A stretch of 63,843 bases of DNA, the filler included, from Deltaproteobacteria bacterium (GTDB lineage Bacteria > JAEEML01): the NCBI GenBank assembly GCA_016283195.1. It is 4 parts of 4 records of this genome, joined end to end, with 100 filler letters (N's around TTAATTAATTAA, not from the genome) between each part and the next. Parts side by side here need not be neighbours in the genome. Positions count along the whole stretch, not along the records: positions 53,434 to 63,843 come from JAEEML010000006.1; 3 more parts are not named here. The stretch is one strand, 5' to 3'. The translations under genes were made by a program, and so were the position numbers. The notes under the pieces are model-generated. The model ran no database searches. It was not told the DNA's origin and saw only the letters and a program-made list of their open reading frames with translations. Numbering within the stretch: position 1 is the first letter of the stretch; each line of letters starts with the position of its first letter. Of this stretch, positions 46,317 through 58,325 are shown piece after piece.

Positions 46317-47975
46317 TTACCAGTAAGTTTCTATCTTCTTTATGCAACGGACAGAATAGGCTTCATCCTTCTCGCCTCTCTGTATGTTGGCATAGTGGCT
46401 ATCCAGGTGCAAGTTGTACGCATGAGAATTATAGGTTTCCGTACTGGACCAAAAGTCGGCTTCGGAGTCGAAATTGTAGCACTTGCTACTCCCGCAGTGA
46501 CCGGCAGGGAGCGCGGAAAAACCCAAAGTATCTTTGCCGTTATTAAAACTAGCGATTCTTAAATTATTGCCGGCGTTAATAAGTCTCCGGGTTTTATCAC
46601 CGCCGCCGGCATAATCGATCAATTCATTAAAATCATCTTTTGATGGCAAACGCCAACCTGGTGGGCAAGCTCTTCTGGCCTTTTCCCACTCATAGAGATA
46701 GCCCCAAACAGCATCATTATTCTTATCATCATTAGGCCAATAATGTTCTACACCGGCGTAGCGCAGATTTTCGGCAAACCACAGCTTTTTATTTATCCTT
46801 ATCGTTTTGTATTCTTTTCCATCGCGCGGGTCGGTAAAAATTTGGCTATCTGTTGCCGGCTGCTTAATAAGAGAAGCTGAGTTCTTTATACAGCGAACAG
46901 ACAAATATCTATCATTTTTTCCATAAGATACCAGCGCTTTATTGACATCTACATAGAGGCCGTAAGCAATTATTTTATTTTGCTCCGTACTGGACCAGAA
47001 ATAGGCCTCAGTATCCAAAAATGAACAGCCTGTTCTTTCGCATTTACCGGCCGGGAGGGCGCCAAAACCAGATAAATTTTTACCCTTTTCCCAATTTTTG
47101 TGGCGCAAGTTTTCAGAATCTGTTCCTTCTGCATAAACATTGGCCAAAAGGCTGTCAAATTCTATTTTGCTGGGCAAGTGGAAGCCGGCAGGACACACTT
47201 TCTGTGCATCGGTAAATTTATATAACAGCCCATATTCACTGGGCTTTTTAGATGCTTTATAATCTATACTCTTGGAAACATAGCGCATATTCTCAGCCAT
47301 CCAGATTTGATTATTAATCTGCACTATTTTATATTTATGACCATCGCGCTGATCTATAAAGGTATTCAGTGCGTGACCATCTTCTAAGTCCTTAACACAA
47401 CGCACGGAAAGAAAATCTGTTTCCTGATTATTGCAGATCTTGGCCGAAACATTATTTTGAGATATCACCATAGAGTAAGCGTCATTATAGCCGTCTTGAG
47501 TGCACTCGGTAACCGACCAAAAGTAGGCAGCTGTTCCAAAAGAAATACAGCTTTCGGACTTATGAGCCCCAGCCGGCAGCGCCGAAAAGCCATAACTATT
47601 TTTGCCACCCTGCCAACTAGCGGCGCGCAAATTATCTGCCCCTTCCTGCCCGCTACCGACATGCACCAAGAGGCGCTCAAATTCCACTTTAGTGGGCAGG
47701 TGCCAGCCGGCAGGGCACACTTTTTGCGCATCAATCCAACTGTAAAGGCAGCCATAGTTTTTGAGGGAAGCACCGTATTTGGTATCATAGTTACAGGCTA
47801 TTTCCTCAGCAATGTATTTCATATTTTCGGCCATCCAGGTTTCGCGGCCGATTTTAACTACCTTATAAACATTGCCATCGCGCTCATCGGTAAATGAGTC
47901 GTATTCTTCTGCCTCTATAGCGGTTGTAAGTAGGGTTATTATACAAAAAGCCGTTATTTTGATTAAATTATTCAT
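46317..47975 (-). CDS. Secreted triple-FISUMP-domain protein (paralog A)
   Basis: Signal peptide; three FxDxRDG..W(M/F)AEN..CPxG(W/F)xLP..LPAG..FWS..SVRC domains. Probable start ATG 47975. Confidence 0.9.
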   Translation of the reverse strand: MNNLIKITAFCIITLLTTAIEAEEYDSFTDERDGNVYKVVKIGRETWMAENMKYIAEEIACNYDTKYGASLKNYGCLYSWIDAQKVCPAGWHLPTKVEFERLLVHVGSGQEGADNLRAASWQGGKNSYGFSALPAGAHKSESCISFGTAAYFWSVTECTQDGYNDAYSMVISQNNVSAKICNNQETDFLSVRCVKDLEDGHALNTFIDQRDGHKYKIVQINNQIWMAENMRYVSKSIDYKASKKPSEYGLLYKFTDAQKVCPAGFHLPSKIEFDSLLANVYAEGTDSENLRHKNWEKGKNLSGFGALPAGKCERTGCSFLDTEAYFWSSTEQNKIIAYGLYVDVNKALVSYGKNDRYLSVRCIKNSASLIKQPATDSQIFTDPRDGKEYKTIRINKKLWFAENLRYAGVEHYWPNDDKNNDAVWGYLYEWEKARRACPPGWRLPSKDDFNELIDYAGGGDKTRRLINAGNNLRIASFNNGKDTLGFSALPAGHCGSSKCYNFDSEADFWSSTETYNSHAYNLHLDSHYANIQRGEKDEAYSVRCIKKIETYW

Positions 47976-48047
47976 TATTATCCTCAAGTGTTGCTGCCTT
48001 AAACTGCCTGCACATCATCTCTCTTACCTAGAGTAAAGCCAACCTGG

Positions 48048-49751
48048 TTAATGTTTGCGTTCGCCCGGTATCTGAGCGCCTTTGTCTCTTACGCAACGTA
48101 CAGAATAGGCGTTTATTTTGTCGAGATGTTTCACACTGGTGCACCACACGTCAGCCGATTTTTCTTGACATGCCCGTAAATTCAAGATGTACGCATGGTG
48201 CCGAGAGTGCTCTGTACTGGACCAGAAATAGGCATCATAGCGCCCGAAATCATCGGAAAAACGGCGGCGCCAATACATACCGGCTGGTAAGGCGGAAAAG
48301 CCATAAGTATCTTTACCATTAAAAAAGCTCTTAGCTCTTAAATTAGCACTAGCAATTCTGCGGCTTTTAACAGCGCCATCGGCACTGGCATATTCCAGCA
48401 GGTCTTCAAACTCCTCCTTGGTTGGCAGGTGAAAGCCCGGTGGGCAAGCTTTTTTGGCCTTTTTCCATTCGTAAAGATAACCCCAAACAGCTTCAATATT
48501 CTTATCGTCATTAGGCCAATAATGCTTTATACCGGCATAGCGCAGATTTTCGGCAAACCAAAGTTTATTATCTATTTCTACTACTTTGTATTCTTTGCCA
48601 TCACGTGGGTCGGTAAAAATTTGGCTGTCTGCCGGCTTATTTACAGCATCGGCTGAGTCCTTTATACAGCGAACAGATAAATATCTATCGATTTTTCCAT
48701 AAGATACTAGCGCTTTGTTAATATCCACATAGAGGCCGTAAGCAATTATTTTATTTCGCTCCGTACTGGACCAGAAATAGGCCTCCGTATTCCAAAATGA
48801 GCAGCCGCTTTTTTCGCATTTACCGGCCGGGAGGGCGCCAAAACCGGATAAATTTTTACCCTTAGCCCAATTTTTGTGGCGCAAATTTTCAGAATCTGCT
48901 CCTTCGGTATAAACATTGGCCAAAAGGCGGTCAAATTCTATTTTGCTGGGCAAGTGGAAGCCGGCCGGGCACACTTTTTGTGCATCGGCGAATGTATATA
49001 AATATCCATATTCACCAGGCTTTTCAGATGCTTTATAATCTATATTCTTGGAAATATAGCGCATATTTTCAGCCATCCAGATTTGCTCATTAATCTTTAT
49101 TGTTTTATATTTATGACCATCACGCTGATCTATAAAGGTATTCAGTGCGTGACCATCTTCCAAGTCCATTACACAACGCACGGAAAGAAAATCTTCCTGG
49201 CTGTTACAGCTCTTTGCCGAAACACTATTTTGAGATATCACCATAGAGTATGCACCATTACTCCCCTCCTGAGTGCACTCTGTAACCGACCAAAAGTAGG
49301 CGTAAGAGCCCAAAGGGATACAGCTTTCGGACTTATGAGCCCCAACCGGCAGCGCAGAAAAGCCATAAGTATTTTTGCCATCCTGCCAACTAGCGGCGCG
49401 CAAATTATCTGACCCTTCCTGCCCGTTACCGATATGCCCTAAGAGGCGGTCAAATTCCACTTTGCTGGGCAAATGGAAGCCGGCCGGGCACACTTTTTGC
49501 GCATCAATCCAACTGTAAAGGCAACCATAATTCTTCACAGAATCGCCATGTTTAGCATCCGAGTGACAAACTATTTCCTCAGCAACGTATTTTACATTTT
49601 CGGCCAGCCAGGTTTCGCGGCCGATTTTAACTACCTTATAAACATTGCCATCGCGCTCATCGGTGAATGAGTCGTATTCTTCTGCCAAGGCGGTAGAGGC
49701 CATAAAAAAGGCCATGACAAAAAACACATTTTTTAAATGCCTACCATACAT
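48048..49751 (-). CDS. Secreted triple-FISUMP-domain protein (paralog B)
   Basis: Different signal peptide; domains 1-2 are highly similar to paralog A; domain 3 diverges after LPAG. Confidence 0.9.
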   Translation of the reverse strand: MYGRHLKNVFFVMAFFMASTALAEEYDSFTDERDGNVYKVVKIGRETWLAENVKYVAEEIVCHSDAKHGDSVKNYGCLYSWIDAQKVCPAGFHLPSKVEFDRLLGHIGNGQEGSDNLRAASWQDGKNTYGFSALPVGAHKSESCIPLGSYAYFWSVTECTQEGSNGAYSMVISQNSVSAKSCNSQEDFLSVRCVMDLEDGHALNTFIDQRDGHKYKTIKINEQIWMAENMRYISKNIDYKASEKPGEYGYLYTFADAQKVCPAGFHLPSKIEFDRLLANVYTEGADSENLRHKNWAKGKNLSGFGALPAGKCEKSGCSFWNTEAYFWSSTERNKIIAYGLYVDINKALVSYGKIDRYLSVRCIKDSADAVNKPADSQIFTDPRDGKEYKVVEIDNKLWFAENLRYAGIKHYWPNDDKNIEAVWGYLYEWKKAKKACPPGFHLPTKEEFEDLLEYASADGAVKSRRIASANLRAKSFFNGKDTYGFSALPAGMYWRRRFSDDFGRYDAYFWSSTEHSRHHAYILNLRACQEKSADVWCTSVKHLDKINAYSVRCVRDKGAQIPGERKH

Positions 49752-49759
49752 ATAAACCT

Positions 49760-49807
49760 CTAAAAGCGCCGAAAATTTTCGTTAACCAGATGCAGATAAA
49801 TACCCAT
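49760..49807 (-). pseudogene. Possible 5' remnant of an AAA-ATPase-like (PD-(D/E)XK-fused) gene
   Basis: RBS GGAGG plus MGIYLHLVNENFRRF*, which resembles the MGIYLNPGNExF start I recall for that family. Confidence 0.3.
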
Positions 49808-49833
49808 GAATACCTCCAGCCTGAGAGTGCGGG

Positions 49834-50982
49834 TTAATCTTTGATGCAACGTACAGAGAGCCAGTATTTCTTCTTCGCATCATCATGCGTATAGGCCTCC
49901 CTATGGTATTTGAATATGTTTTTGTCGTCCCTATACACTCTAATCGTGAAGGAAAATGCAGTATTTGCTGCAGCACTATATGACATACTGGACCAGAAGA
50001 GGGCATTAAAGCCGAACCCATCGTATCTGCTTCTTCTCCCCCATTTTTTACCGGCTGGTAAGGCCCCAAAGCCATAAGTGTCTTTGCCATTAAGAAAGCT
50101 GCTGGATCTTAAATTATCACTGGCTTTTTCATTAAAGCCACTTTTATGACCGTCACCGGCATATTTCAGCAAGTCATTAAACTCCTCCCTGGTTGGCAGG
50201 TGAAAGCCGGGCGGGCAAGCTGTCATGGCATCTTCCCATTTATAGAGGTAGCCATAAGCAGCATCGATATTCTTATCGCCATTAGGCCATCTATGCTTTA
50301 CACCAGCGTAGCGCAGATTTTCGGCAAACCAAATCTTGTTATTTATTTTTACCGTTTTGTATTCCTTTCCATCGCGCGGATCGGTAAAAATTTGGCTGTC
50401 AGTCGGCTGCTTTTCGGCTGATTCCTCTATACAGCGAACAGATAAATAGCTGGCACTGTTTCCATAAGATACCAGCGCTTTGTTAATATCCACATAGAGG
50501 CCATAAGCAGTTATTTTATTGCGAGCCGTACCGGACCAAAAATAGGCCTCAGCATCCAAAAATGAGCAGCCGCTTTTTTCGCATTTACCGGCCGGGAGGG
50601 CGCCAAAACCGGATAAATTTCTGCCTTTTGCCCAGGTTTTATGGCGCAAATTTTCAGATTCTGTGCCTCTGGTATAGGCTGTGGTGAGGAGACGGTCAAA
50701 TTCCACTTTTGTGGGCAGGCGAAAGCCAGCCGGGCACACTTTTTGCGCAGCGGCAAAACTATATAAATAGCCATATTCATGTGGCTTTTGGGACTCTTTG
50801 TAATCTATGTCATTATTAGTGTAGCGCATATTTTCGGCCAGCCAGGTTTCGCGGCCGATTTTAACTACTTTATAAACATTGCCATCGCGCTCATCAGTGA
50901 ATGCGTCGTATTCCCCTGCTGAGATAGCGGTTGTAATTAAGGTTATTATACAAAAAGTCACCGTTTTGATTAAATTATTCAT
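49834..50982 (-). CDS. Secreted double-FISUMP-domain protein (paralog C)
   Basis: Signal peptide like paralog A; first domain is a domain-1/domain-2 hybrid. Probable start ATG 50982. Confidence 0.9.
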   Translation of the reverse strand: MNNLIKTVTFCIITLITTAISAGEYDAFTDERDGNVYKVVKIGRETWLAENMRYTNNDIDYKESQKPHEYGYLYSFAAAQKVCPAGFRLPTKVEFDRLLTTAYTRGTESENLRHKTWAKGRNLSGFGALPAGKCEKSGCSFLDAEAYFWSGTARNKITAYGLYVDINKALVSYGNSASYLSVRCIEESAEKQPTDSQIFTDPRDGKEYKTVKINNKIWFAENLRYAGVKHRWPNGDKNIDAAYGYLYKWEDAMTACPPGFHLPTREEFNDLLKYAGDGHKSGFNEKASDNLRSSSFLNGKDTYGFGALPAGKKWGRRSRYDGFGFNALFWSSMSYSAAANTAFSFTIRVYRDDKNIFKYHREAYTHDDAKKKYWLSVRCIKD

Positions 50983-51015
50983 TACCTGCCTCAAGTCCTA
51001 GTACCTTAAACCTCA

Positions 51016-53333: not shown

Positions 53334-53433
53334 NNNNNNNNNNNNNNNNNNNNNNNNNNNNNNNNNNNNNNNNNNNNTTAATTAATTAANNNNNNNNNNN
53401 NNNNNNNNNNNNNNNNNNNNNNNNNNNNNNNNN
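53334..53433. other. Artificial contig linker
   Basis: N-run with TTAATTAATTAA. Confidence 0.97.
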
Positions 53434-53435
53434 AA

Positions 53436-53744
53436 GATGATTTTGAAGAGTTATTAAATATCGTAGATCTAGCCAAAACCAGTACTTCAGAGGCCCAGGC
53501 TCTTACAGCCACAAGCACAGATTGGACCAATTATAGTGAGCAAGGTGGTGATGATTTTGGCTTTGGCGCCCTGCCCGCCGGCTACTACAGCTCCGGGAGC
53601 TACAGCGGTTTCGGGTCGCTCGCCTACTTCTGGTCCAGTACGCAGTACGATAATTTCTATGCCTACAGCCTGCATGTAAACCTTGCGTACTTGTACTACT
53701 ACAGTAAGACGAACGCCCTCTCGGTGCGCTGCATTAGGAACTAG
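53436..53744 (+). CDS. 3' end of a FISUMP-domain gene (5' lost in gap); candidate DGR target
   Basis: Not in the ORF track. DDFEELLNIV...DDFGFGALPAGYYSSGSYSGFGSLAYFWSSTQYDNFYAYSLHVNLAYLYYYSKTNALSVRCIRN*. Confidence 0.88.
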   Translation, partial: DDFEELLNIVDLAKTSTSEAQALTATSTDWTNYSEQGGDDFGFGALPAGYYSSGSYSGFGSLAYFWSSTQYDNFYAYSLHVNLAYLYYYSKTNALSVRCIRN

Positions 53745-53745
53745 A

Positions 53746-53870
53746 CCTCACCCCTGGCCACCTCTCCCCATTTTTACAAATGCGGCGAGGGGGAATTATT
53801 GGAAAATACATGATAATTTACCCTCTCTACCGCTAAGGTGGAGCGGGTGGCACGTAAGCGCCGGGTGAGG
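53746..53870. repeat. REPIN/MITE-like element of about 125 bp (copy 3)
   Basis: Terminal inverted repeat CCTCACCC (53746)/GGGTGAGG (53863), with two inverted ccacc-ctctcc-type hairpin units inside. Confidence 0.65.
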
Positions 53871-53871
53871 A

Positions 53872-54010
53872 AGCACCCAGCTGGAAGAAGCCAGTGAAAA
53901 GAAGCGTAAGGAGATTATTCCGGTCATCACTCTGGTGATCTATTTTGGCACTATGACAAAGATTATAAAGCGTTAGCAGAAACTCTAAGCCATGTTCGCG
54001 GTGCAGTAAA
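53872..54010 (+). pseudogene. Possible remnant of an Rpn-family nuclease/putative transposase
   Basis: Reads QLEEASEKKRKEIIPVITLVIYFGT. PVITLVxYxG is typical of Rpn/PD-(D/E)XK proteins. No start codon and an early stop. Confidence 0.35.
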
Positions 54011-54026
54011 AAACTGGGCTTATTGT

Positions 54027-55478
54027 TTACCTAAAAACCCCGGCGGCGGGAGCCGGCATTTCAATGTGCAAAAAAGCACGGTGAAAAGAAGATAACATGG
54101 CTAGCGCTTCCTCTTTAGACATATTTCCGCTTATTTGCAAAAGCCAGGGAATACCCATGAGGCGATTTATGCCCGGCGGCGAATCGAGCCAGCCAAAGGG
54201 GTGCTCCGGCGCCACAAAAAGATGCCCCTCTTTTATGGCTTTTAACCCCTGCCACATCGGCTCAGAGCGCAGCTTTTCATAAAGAGCGTAATCATTGGTA
54301 ACAATATAGTCAGGCTGAATATTAAGTAGCTCTTCAAAGGAGATACGCACCAAACCGTGCTGAGTGGAACGAGGGATGGCATTTTTAAAACCCAGGAGGC
54401 GAAGAAGCGCCGCATGGATGGCCCCATCACCGGCACTCTCCAGCCCATCGCTCCCTTTGGCCAAATAAAAGACCGGCGGCCGCCCCTTGGCGCCAAAGGT
54501 TTCACGGAGGGCGGCCGCCCTGCTGAGTAACATTTGCGCCTGCTCTATTTGGCTCTCTGCCGCCGCTTCCCTGCCTAGAATCTGGGCCAAAAGAGCCAGT
54601 GTTTCCGGCGCTTTTTCCAAAGAGCCGTCCAGGAGCAGATATGGCAGGCCGGTCTGGGCCTGCACTCTATCGGCTAGGGATATATATGTGGGCCCGATAT
54701 CGCCATAATCAATGACAAGATCCACTCCATAGCGCAGGAACTGCTCATAACTGGCGGTGCCGCCGCGCCCCGAGAGCCGGCCGATAACCGGCAAGCCGCG
54801 CACATTTTCCGGTAAAAGTGCCAAAGATTCCGGCGCGAGTTTAGTGGACCAGCCGGCCATCTTTTCCGGCGCTATGGCATAGAGAAGCGCGGCGGCAACC
54901 GGCCCGGCCGCCGCAATTTTGCGGATATTAACCGAGACTGCCACGTTGCGTCCAGCGGAGTCGATTACTTGTCGCGTATTGGCCGCGCCTAAAAAAGGCG
55001 GCCGGGCCTCGCCGGCACTCGCCACCGCCGCCGCCATGGGGTGGCCCGCAGGCGGCGCTGCCCCCTGCCCCTCTTTAGCAGAACAAGCTGTAAGGGGCAG
55101 CACCGCCAAAATGAGCAACATAAGCAATGCTTTGGACTTTTGCACAATATTCCAAAAGAGGGCGGCTTCACGGTCGGTGGCCTGCTGCACTTTGGCGTAA
55201 AATTTCCGAAATTCTTCCAAAAAGAGCAGGCCGGCCGGGGTGAGTTCCGCTCCCCCGCGCGCTGCCCCACCCTTGGTGCGGGCCACCACCTGATAACCGA
55301 GATTATCTTCCAAATTCTTTAGCAATTTCAGTGCCTTGGGGTATGATAGTTCCATGGCGGCGGCGGCAGCTCTCACCGAGCCATAACTTTGGATATTCTC
55401 CAAAAGCCAGATAGAGCCGATTCCGCCAAAAGCGGCACCATTATCATCTTTGAGTTTAATTCTGATTTCACACTGCAC
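54027..55478 (-). CDS. ModE-type winged HTH fused via a lipoprotein-like signal to a class III ABC substrate-binding domain
   Basis: N-terminal GSIWLLENIQSYGSVRAAAAAMELSYPKA..RTKGGAARGGAELTPAG; then KSKALLMLLILAVLPLTAC; then VIDSAGRNV..AGPVA..PFGWLDSPPGINRLMG. Confidence 0.82.
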   Translation of the reverse strand: MQCEIRIKLKDDNGAAFGGIGSIWLLENIQSYGSVRAAAAAMELSYPKALKLLKNLEDNLGYQVVARTKGGAARGGAELTPAGLLFLEEFRKFYAKVQQATDREAALFWNIVQKSKALLMLLILAVLPLTACSAKEGQGAAPPAGHPMAAAVASAGEARPPFLGAANTRQVIDSAGRNVAVSVNIRKIAAAGPVAAALLYAIAPEKMAGWSTKLAPESLALLPENVRGLPVIGRLSGRGGTASYEQFLRYGVDLVIDYGDIGPTYISLADRVQAQTGLPYLLLDGSLEKAPETLALLAQILGREAAAESQIEQAQMLLSRAAALRETFGAKGRPPVFYLAKGSDGLESAGDGAIHAALLRLLGFKNAIPRSTQHGLVRISFEELLNIQPDYIVTNDYALYEKLRSEPMWQGLKAIKEGHLFVAPEHPFGWLDSPPGINRLMGIPWLLQISGNMSKEEALAMLSSFHRAFLHIEMPAPAAGVFR

Positions 55479-56207: not shown

Positions 56208-58325
56208 TTAAAACGTTGCGCCCAGGCCGACAAAAATCTGCCGACCGGGTTGTGGCGAAAAGCCGCCAATTACATAATAAGTGTCAAAAGTATTGCGCAT
56301 ATCGCCAAAGATATAGAAGCTGCCGCGCCCGCCAAAGGTCTTCCAGGTCTGCCGGATATTGAGGCCCACCAAGGCATAAGGCGGCATCTCTTCCAGCACA
56401 TAGCTATTGGTGAAGGTATCGAGATAATAGGCTTCGGTGCGGCTGGCAAAGCGCAAATCAAGGGTAATATTCAGGCCAAAAAAGAGCATAAAGCGGGCGG
56501 CCGCCTGCAAATAGTGCGGCACCCGGTAATCGAGCGGCAAATTGGTGCTTTTATCGAGCGCGTAAAGATAGGTGTAGCCGAGGTCAAACTGGAACCAGCT
56601 CACCGGATTTATCATAAAACTGTTTTCCACTCCGGCAAGCAGCGCTTTATTCACATTGATATAAGTGGCACCCGGTTTATCAATAAGATCATCCACAAAT
56701 GAGACAAAGCCGCGCACTTTATAGGTAAGTTTAAAGGGTAGCACTTTGCCCAAAAAGAGATTGCCGCCAAAATCGAGCATCAGCGCCCGCTCCGGTTTTA
56801 GCTTGGAATTGCCGCCCACAAAGTTGGAAAAGAGCTCCTTCAAAGTGGGGAAGCGGGTCTTGCGCCCTACCCCAGCCACCAGTTGCAGAGGCTTAACCAC
56901 GTCATATTGCAGAGCAAAACGCCACTCCAAAGCCGGGATAGTGCGGTCGGTAACATCCCAAGATTCGCCTTGCAGCTCTTCAGCCAGCACCTTTTCTCCG
57001 GCTGCCGATATGCCGGCCAAGAGACTCACCGGCCCCAGTTTTTGTTGATCTTCAAGTGCAAAATGGAAAAGCATGGTTTCATATTTTTGCAAAGGCTTTT
57101 TGTAACTCTCTTTCAGCTCTGTGGGCACTGTCCACTCTTCCTGAGTGTTGTGATCGATTTTAAAGCCGTAATTGGTGCGCAGAGTGTTATTTTTCCACAG
57201 CACCACCGCCGGAGTGAAATTGAGGCCGGTTGTCCAGTTTTGGTAGCCGGAGGAGCGGAACCAGGCCAGCGGATTTCTCGTGAGTTCTTTATAAGTATTA
57301 TCCTGATAATCTTCGATTGTATCGTGGTGCAGCATTAAGAAGTAGTTGGCATCAAAGCTAAAATTGCCGGCGCCCATGCCGCTTTTGGGCTTCAAACTGG
57401 CCGAAAGGCCGATGAGGCCGGTGTTGTACTCGCTAAAGCGCCAATAGCGCACATAACCAGATGATTCAAAGGGGGGTACTCCACGCTCCACCCAGCTGTA
57501 ATTGGCGAGAGCCGAGAGGCGGAAGCGCCCGTGAGTATAAGCCAGGCGGGCTTGCAAAAGCTGCTTATCGCTATCGCTGCCTTCGCGCAGGCATTTGTCG
57601 TCGCCTTCGCAACTGGTTTCGTGAAAAGCGGCATCCCTTTCGCTGGCTTTGTAACTCCTGGGCAAGGGGAAGTAGCCCAGTTTTTGGCTTTGAAAGGCGA
57701 GTGATGCGCTAAAGCCGCGTAGAGAAACACCGGCAATGGCTTTTACCACATAGCCGGGCGCTTCGCCGGTGGTGAGGTCGCGCAGTTGCACTTCCACTTT
57801 GCCGCCGGCCGGGCCATACCAAGGGTCACTGTGAATATGAATAATGCCGCCCATGGCTCCGGGGCCATAGAGCAGGCTGGTAACCCCGCGCTCGATTTCT
57901 ATAGCCGAAACGCCGGTCAAAAGCAGAGTATTGGAGTCATAGCCGCCGGCATACACCTCGCTGATGGGAATGCCATCAAACATGAGCAGCGAAGCTCTTT
58001 GGTCAAAGCCGCGGATCATTATTTCCGAGCCCGCCTTGGCGTGCTCACTCACTTGCAATCCCGGCACTTCGTTAAGCACCTGGGCAATGGTGGTATTGCC
58101 CTCTTCTTGCAGTTTTTGGCCGGTAATAATAGTGCCGGAAATTGGCGCCATACGCTTTTGCCCGCGCACCACGGTGCGCATTTCGTCTTTTTCGGGAGCT
58201 TTGGGGCTCTCCGTCTGCCCGTCAGCTATGTCGGTAGCGGCATCTGTGGCACCATCATCAGCCAAGGCATAAACAGGCCGCATAGTCATAAAAAGTAAAA
58301 ACGTAAGTAGAGCTTTCTTCTTCAT
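56208..58325 (-). CDS. TonB-dependent outer membrane receptor
   Basis: Signal peptide; TonB-box-like TVVRG; plug VPGL..IRGFD..DGIP..IEIERG..LYGPGAMGGII; RFPTLKEL, LKPE; terminal GRQIFVGLGATF. Confidence 0.93.
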   Translation of the reverse strand: MKKKALLTFLLFMTMRPVYALADDGATDAATDIADGQTESPKAPEKDEMRTVVRGQKRMAPISGTIITGQKLQEEGNTTIAQVLNEVPGLQVSEHAKAGSEIMIRGFDQRASLLMFDGIPISEVYAGGYDSNTLLLTGVSAIEIERGVTSLLYGPGAMGGIIHIHSDPWYGPAGGKVEVQLRDLTTGEAPGYVVKAIAGVSLRGFSASLAFQSQKLGYFPLPRSYKASERDAAFHETSCEGDDKCLREGSDSDKQLLQARLAYTHGRFRLSALANYSWVERGVPPFESSGYVRYWRFSEYNTGLIGLSASLKPKSGMGAGNFSFDANYFLMLHHDTIEDYQDNTYKELTRNPLAWFRSSGYQNWTTGLNFTPAVVLWKNNTLRTNYGFKIDHNTQEEWTVPTELKESYKKPLQKYETMLFHFALEDQQKLGPVSLLAGISAAGEKVLAEELQGESWDVTDRTIPALEWRFALQYDVVKPLQLVAGVGRKTRFPTLKELFSNFVGGNSKLKPERALMLDFGGNLFLGKVLPFKLTYKVRGFVSFVDDLIDKPGATYINVNKALLAGVENSFMINPVSWFQFDLGYTYLYALDKSTNLPLDYRVPHYLQAAARFMLFFGLNITLDLRFASRTEAYYLDTFTNSYVLEEMPPYALVGLNIRQTWKTFGGRGSFYIFGDMRNTFDTYYVIGGFSPQPGRQIFVGLGATF

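Follow-up and report, generated by a model that had tools for sequence, protein, structure and literature searches.

The FISUMP gene end on contig C97

The window, that is, the whole stretch of 63,843 nucleotides analyzed here, consists of four contigs of the source genome (G000; 3.22 Mb in 190 contigs, completeness rating 100%) joined by linkers of N, and the finding lies within the first 311 bases of contig C97. An artificial N-linker (53334..53433) joins contigs C95 and C97, with groEL, unrelated to the finding, to its left. It is followed on the plus strand by the 3' fragment of a FISUMP (Fib_succ_major) gene encoding 102 aa (53436..53744), the open frame of which corresponds to the second half of the FISUMP profile (TIGR02145, E 1.4e-14). 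This match bears out the sequence-only reading of 53568-53744 as an in-frame FISUMP C-terminus; the gene itself is cut at the start of the contig (window position 53434), only its last 102 residues being present, and its 5' part was searched for in the source genome and not found. Within the fragment, a constant 5' anchor of ALPAG codons (53568..53582, plus strand), which falls within the template homology of related diversity-generating retroelements (DGRs), precedes a DGR-type variable region (VR) of 46 codons (53583..53720, plus strand), placed in template family B by the family-B alignment. A constant 3' anchor (SVRC) with the stop codon closes the gene (53721..53744, plus strand), the end of the VR being located 3 codons upstream of the stop. 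Downstream lie two inverted units of a dispersed palindromic repeat (53746..53880) and a 43-codon plus-strand fragment (53827..53955) with 58% identity to a YhgA/Rpn-like putative transposase (PF04754) from contig L064. The window also encodes a fusion of an HTH_1 regulator with a periplasmic binding protein, in the vicinity of a TonB-dependent receptor (54027-55478 and 56208-58325). In a kin comparison none of 40 putative relatives matched (0/40), all 40 being related at the domain level only, and a phylum search among the compared genomes returned the source genome alone, with no other member.

The shift in codon usage described in the sequence-only reading proved to be real. Positions 53568-53744 contain 10 TAC and 1 TAT codons, against a genome-wide TAC share of 0.28 (7,202/25,677), and third positions there were C33/G16/T9/A1 (n = 59 codons), compared with C9/G5/T19/A11 over the preceding 44 codons of the gene. 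Binomial p values were 2.5e-5 for TAC and 8e-5 for third-position A, and a Fisher test within the gene gave p = 2-3e-4. A synonymous codon model controlled for amino-acid composition and trained on seven real VRs from other organisms ranked the C97 end second among 2,590 gene ends (ORFs of at least 100 aa, spurious ORFs included), the top five all being FISUMP ends. The C97 VR (C3 0.57, A3 0.02, TAC/TAT 10/1) falls in the range of seven real FISUMP VRs (C3 0.49-0.70, A3 0-0.08, TAC/TAT 53/5). With an A3 count of 1/59, its fingerprint is as fresh as that of family A, and decay has barely started.

Variable-region-like ends across the genome

The source genome contains 114 Pfam matches to FISUMP, an expansion on the scale of Fibrobacter (90, 25 and 70 matches in genomes G041-G043). 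In all, 109 domain ends were located and 99 were scored, the remaining 10 being dropped as having no anchor. A fingerprint score of at least 0.44 was reached by 13 of the 67 C-terminal FISUMP domains and by none of the internal ones (0/32), while the eight FISUMP domains of three tandem genes in the window (46317-50994), used as a control, all scored 0.33 or less. About 20 FISUMP ends carry VR-like segments when fresh, eroded and unassigned ones are taken together, the eroded ends (11-19 non-A mismatches to template A) being tentative.

Alignment of the VR-like ends resolved two template families. Family A comprises C136, C126, C18, C187 and C96, together with the unbinned contigs L058 and L064. 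Its variable columns at codon positions 1, 2 and 3 numbered 27, 28 and 11 of 52, compared with 26/27/44 and 33/31/48 in control clades; pN exceeded pS in 21 of 21 pairs, and pS was 0.03-0.19 within the VR vs. 0.64-0.81 upstream. Family B, delineated by inference from six eroded members, consists of the C97 gene and C2, C72, C78, C28 and C86, and its signal is weaker, with pN close to pS (pN/pS of 0.28/0.20 for C97-C2, 0.27/0.38 for C97-C72 and 0.31/0.64 for C97-C28). In a leave-one-out comparison, the other five family-B members had a non-A base in common at 54 positions; the C97 VR departs from it at 3 of them and has a two-codon deletion with respect to the rest of the family. The corresponding counts were 0/52 for C2, 1/50 for C72, 5/57 for C78, 9/61 for C86 and 11/63 for C28. 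The short copies on C78 and C72 were rejected as templates, both being broken or truncated VR-bearing genes.

Nucleotide comparisons indicate that the lineage of a VR is uncoupled from that of the scaffold carrying it. The nearest scaffold to that of C97 was found in paralog C136 (84% nucleotide identity over the 129 nt upstream of the VR), the VR of which belongs to family A and agrees with that of C97 at 24 of 43 third positions. The nearest VR is that of C2 (37/46 third positions), on a scaffold 51% alike, and C136 and C126 agree at 49 of 50 VR third positions with scaffolds 39% alike. The stretch shared within family A starts and ends at points that differ by gene, inside the template homology, and no scaffold travels with it; C18 and C187 retain other anchor codons and C126 its own 3' end. 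The proteins of L058 and L065 have the same domain and the same terminal VR in two assemblies, and different N-termini.

In most whole members the N-terminus shows, as judged by eye, a lipoprotein-like signal as well as a Cys-rich stalk. A whole-domain model was obtained for C136, the closest paralog, and not for the C97 fragment (pLDDT 83); its best structural match was TvpA (Z 8.8, rmsd 4.0, 136 residues aligned), followed by Mtd (Z 7.1), and Foldseek returned a best E value of 5e-3, with none at or below 1e-3. Through this paralog, the C97 VR is predicted to lie at the 3' end of a C-type-lectin-fold domain. The VR-bearing FISUMP proteins are likely to be lipoproteins of the cell surface in which a Cys-rich stalk carries a C-type-lectin-fold tip, and each tip probably holds a predicted, once-randomised binding site, suggestive of a binding function.

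The hairpins behind the stop codon, noted in the sequence-only reading, fold well (z -3.5) but were rejected as a DGR-specific signal: they belong to a palindromic repeat, which we take to be REP-like, dispersed over 62 genome sites, mostly behind other genes and 4-5 times after FISUMP ends. A 96% copy lies behind an unrelated gene on C177, and the repeat occurs at 4/17 VR-like ends vs. 1/50 other ends (p = 0.013). Similarly, a GC hairpin behind the C108 and C126 VRs recurs at 11 non-VR places. A 13-nt motif right at the stop was found at five genome sites (C28, C92, C108, C126 and C142), all of them VR-bearing FISUMP ends, and is a candidate homing signal on the basis of this distribution; the C97 gene does not have it. 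YhgA/Rpn-like pieces lie within 1.5 kb of 4/17 VR-like ends and 3/50 other ends, compared with 1.8% of random positions. Including 53827-53955 in the window, such transposase pieces were observed at that site and 21 others, and near 7 of 67 FISUMP ends. A PD-(D/E)XK gene adjoins the Fibrobacter DGR L073.

Templates, reverse transcriptases and a probable remnant cassette

The AAC-rich template copy of the C97 VR that the sequence-only reading led us to seek is absent from the assembly: ungapped, adenine-tolerant scans of the 190 contigs returned paralogs only, both for this VR and for 17 VR-like cores. In the metagenome collection, a pattern covering both VRs and either template matched 10 loci, all of them VR-bearing genes and none a template. 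Seven of these loci duplicate contigs of the source genome, and the other three are L058, L064 and L065; unbinned contigs of 1.4-6 kb were within reach of the pattern. L058 and L064 are further contigs from the record series of the source genome, with family-A VRs, and L065, from another record series, repeats the L058 VR. Pattern scans of the genome collection and of the viral collection gave no result. On viral contigs, a protein scan with the C126 paralog gave five candidates, none confirmed, and a scan with P0126 (described below) gave seven loci at 34-55% identity.

Among named genomes, a template-type pattern matched seven loci, five with a DGR reverse transcriptase (RT) and all (7/7) with template/VR pairs in the same register. 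Since the templates at these loci are in frame, or nearly so, with the RT, proteins were searched with the frame of L073, which yielded P0126, an intact DGR RT of 427 aa that opens with a translated template, encoded on a 3,766-bp contig and absent from the source genome. This template is almost identical to the family-A template earlier inferred from the paralogs. Six of the seven family-A VRs differ from it at 1-4 of 96-100 non-A sites and at 18-37 of 59-62 A sites, the exception being C96, with 11 non-A mismatches. The template is available at the protein level, with codons fitted jointly to the VRs, and 50 templates were fitted alike; the joint fit to family A cost 35 for P0126, 90 for the next template and 162 in the median (n = 50). 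On these fits, the P0126 template is cognate to family A. It was rejected as the template of the C97 VR (misfit 24/91, with four gap codons), for which the best protein-level fit was that of the Fibrobacter-like P0123 (cost 11, median 26); the P0123 type is a relative and not the cognate. The five best relatives of P0126 in the RT group share 57-63% identity with it, and none of the matches listed exceeds 65%.

A genome-wide search for a DGR-clade RT and avd recovered neither an intact DGR RT nor Avd, and one relic. RT matches were a UG26 at C156:5233-6453 (PADLOC 1e-150), a UG26 copy at C108:3-572 that is cut by the contig end and 90% like the former, and an unclassified RT at C172:9812-11197, which adjoins a membrane-protein gene. 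The C156 and C172 RTs were rejected as the mutator, as the GxxxSQ motif present in three reference DGR RTs is missing from both. Besides these three, 117 DGR-RT queries detected only a core-deleted relic on C108. The Avd profile NF033474 had no match in the source genome, nor did two phage Avd proteins (best E 0.81) and three candidate Avd frames from FISUMP-DGR loci. As assembled, the C97 gene does not belong to an active DGR: template, intact RT and Avd are all absent.

The relic (C108:4536-4744) consists of two fused pieces, corresponding approximately to residues 240-262 and 380-426, with the catalytic core missing. It is 72% identical to P0126 over 47 aa, compared with 38-40% for the next RTs, and adjoins tRNA-Thr(CGT). 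A 5'-truncated family-A VR (C108:3227-3306) and a Phd-like/PIN pair flanked by 35-bp direct repeats are located some 1.2 kb upstream of it. The whole array of VR, Phd-like/PIN pair, RT relic and tRNA-Thr(CGT) (C108:3227-4865, equivalent to L093:928-2566) is read here as the remnant of a deleted family-A cassette. The relic is of family A and bears no direct word on core B; as no other relic was found with the 117 RT queries, the bin holds no sign of core B.

Variation in other runs was analyzed for four of the six runs listed, from contigs only and at a depth of 2-4, with loss of rare variants. Twelve of the 18 pieces from these runs touch the C97 gene. A contig of run X3, possibly not independent of the source, covers 53581-53731 with one difference (C>A) in 151 nt, which fits a frozen allele, bearing in mind that contigs drop rare variants. 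The remaining pieces were paralogous VRs or anchors, none of them template-like among the matches listed, and related VRs with other NNC codons were present in runs X1-X4. Two proteins from different sources, P0018 and P0021, are identical at 124 of 130 residues before the VR and at 38 of 56 within it; this concentration of differences in the VR speaks against a system that is altogether dead and shows strain-to-strain variation in family A.

Origin of the C97 variable region and comparison with known systems

That the C97 segment is of DGR origin seems to us close to certain, given the FISUMP-VR fingerprint, the adenine-type divergence of its sisters, the cognate family-A template and RT, and the DGR-RT relic. 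The sequence-only reading, which had seen here a remote DGR target, thus stands with respect to DGR origin and to the lack of a core nearby, and is less likely to hold for a currently active target. We consider it fairly likely that the VR is orphaned, having been written in place by machinery since lost. An active target is less likely because of the missing template, intact RT and Avd, the single X3 difference and the failure of the hairpin argument.

In DGRs, as described in PMC5758913, reverse transcription of a template RNA introduces errors at adenines, turning AAC/AAT into NNC/NNT codons, and the resulting cDNA takes the place of the VR, which can also happen in trans. Here, an AAC/AAT-rich template would have been copied, with adenine errors, by a family-B FISUMP-targeting DGR of a type now in gut Fibrobacter, and the cDNA would have been written in trans into the 3' end of the pre-existing C97 FISUMP paralog. 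A second DGR (family A, P0126 type) would have rewritten other paralogs likewise. Both cores would then have left the genome as assembled, the family-A RT relic beside tRNA-Thr on C108 remaining, and the rewritten tips would be frozen and drifting slowly towards genomic codon use.

Scaffold/VR mosaicism fits equally well a DGR-made tip that was mutagenised elsewhere, in this or another gut bacterium, and then recombined or gene-converted between the anchors. The L058 and L065 proteins, alike in domain and VR but not in N-terminus, point to recombination in such genes, and the YhgA/Rpn-like fragments near VR-like ends, as well as the lack in the C97 gene of the post-stop motif common to five VR ends, also agree with such a transfer. 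We nevertheless regard it as unlikely, because the borders of the family-A stretch vary by gene with no co-travelling scaffold, as for template-derived cDNA, and because the DGR-RT relic demonstrates a once-resident core. Since contigs of the same organism lie outside the 190-contig bin (L058, L064), a core may be unbinned, and an intact family-B core on an unbinned or unassembled piece could still be rewriting the C97 gene. The fresh fingerprint, a bin incomplete for FISUMP genes, the existence of an intact sister cassette (P0126), the near-identical scaffolds of P0018 and P0021 and the other NNC codons in runs X1-X4 would all suit such ongoing activity. This seems improbable, however, as the metagenome pattern, which did recover unbinned contigs, matched 10 VR-bearing loci but no template, X3 differs at only 1/151 nt, the C97 VR has three non-A differences and a two-codon deletion with respect to family B, and the sole DGR-RT trace is broken.

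An origin without any DGR, through high-expression codon bias or diversifying selection on a binding surface of paralogs, could draw on the fact that FISUMP C-termini are rich in Tyr, Ser and Asn family-wide, and that C-ending codons are often favoured in highly expressed bacterial genes. Yet the bias switches within a single gene, selection is unable to reduce pS to the values seen in family-A VRs where upstream pS is high, a real template fits that sister family, and the eight control domains of the window do not show the fingerprint. This explanation is largely refuted, and we give it very little credence.

With the orphaned VR as the preferred reading, the closest precedent is Treponema denticola, in which 8 of 17 strains have no RT or TR but still carry 2-6 targets and strain SP32 retains a leftover VR of another template type, according to the data of Nimkulrat et al. 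(2016; PMC4891356). As in the TvpA family described there, to which the best structural match of the C136 model belongs, several dispersed lipoprotein targets have C-terminal C-type-lectin VRs. In contrast to T. denticola, the source genome has FISUMP instead of an FGE-sulfatase domain, about 20 written tips vs. at most 7 in the published account, and two template families among 114 domain matches, and it is the sole genome of its phylum among those compared.

The VR register, anchors and codon fingerprint are the same as in the FISUMP-target DGRs L068-L073, which include a horse-gut Fibrobacter MAG and in which the template is in frame with the RT, as in P0126. Template, RT and a neighbouring target occur together there, whereas in the source genome the core is either absent or reduced to a relic. 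Of the 90 FISUMP domains in the Fibrobacter genome G041, three are adjacent matches and 1-2 are strong remote ones; its DGR L073 has a tandem array of three FISUMP VRs, plus one remote copy or more (79% to the template). The C97 gene behaves like a remote target of category 'd', defined as DUF1566/DUF823/Fib_succ_major in Wu et al. (2018; PMC5758913). Many DGR-touched C-type-lectin paralogs per genome are also reported for cyanobacteria (76 remote targets in 21 genomes; PMC7517822) and Thiohalocapsa PB-PSB1 (15 targets in 9 loci; 10.1101/2023.09.22.558884), there partly with remnant homology. According to these reports, RTs are resident in those organisms and targets mostly serve signalling or defence, while the source genome has predicted surface lipoproteins and no working core in the assembly. 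Remote-target counts given in PMC5758913 are at most 7, and 43 targets in print carry a FISUMP annotation. No literature linking FISUMP by name with the term diversity-generating was found, and comparable FISUMP examples may appear in the supplementary target tables that accompany Wu et al. and Roux et al.

Taken alone, the C97 gene is an ordinary stranded target, to which the T. denticola precedent is close. Stranded DGR targets are already known, and about 20 in one genome are rarely seen; less usual are the scale, the mosaic of two templates and the host. DGR products are recognisable, can be grouped by template and are able to predict a template without the element, as the template inferred from paralogs was later found fused to an RT in the public protein P0126. 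RT-anchored surveys overlook such targets, as stated in PMC8144416. The results also connect the FISUMP expansions, which are poorly understood, with episodic hypermutation, and do so in a bacterium without phylum-level kin among the compared genomes. A broader proposal, which we put forward as speculative, is that DGRs act as visiting mutators: successive cassettes from Fibrobacter-like gut donors, one of them at tRNA-Thr, would rewrite about 20 surface lectins in trans and then be deleted, any old FISUMP paralog with both anchors being recruited with no dedicated IMH or hairpin. If so, this genome would hold one of the largest single-genome remote-target repertoires reported, and past DGR rounds would be preserved layer upon layer in the huge FISUMP families of gut bacteria, where codon decay would allow them to be dated.
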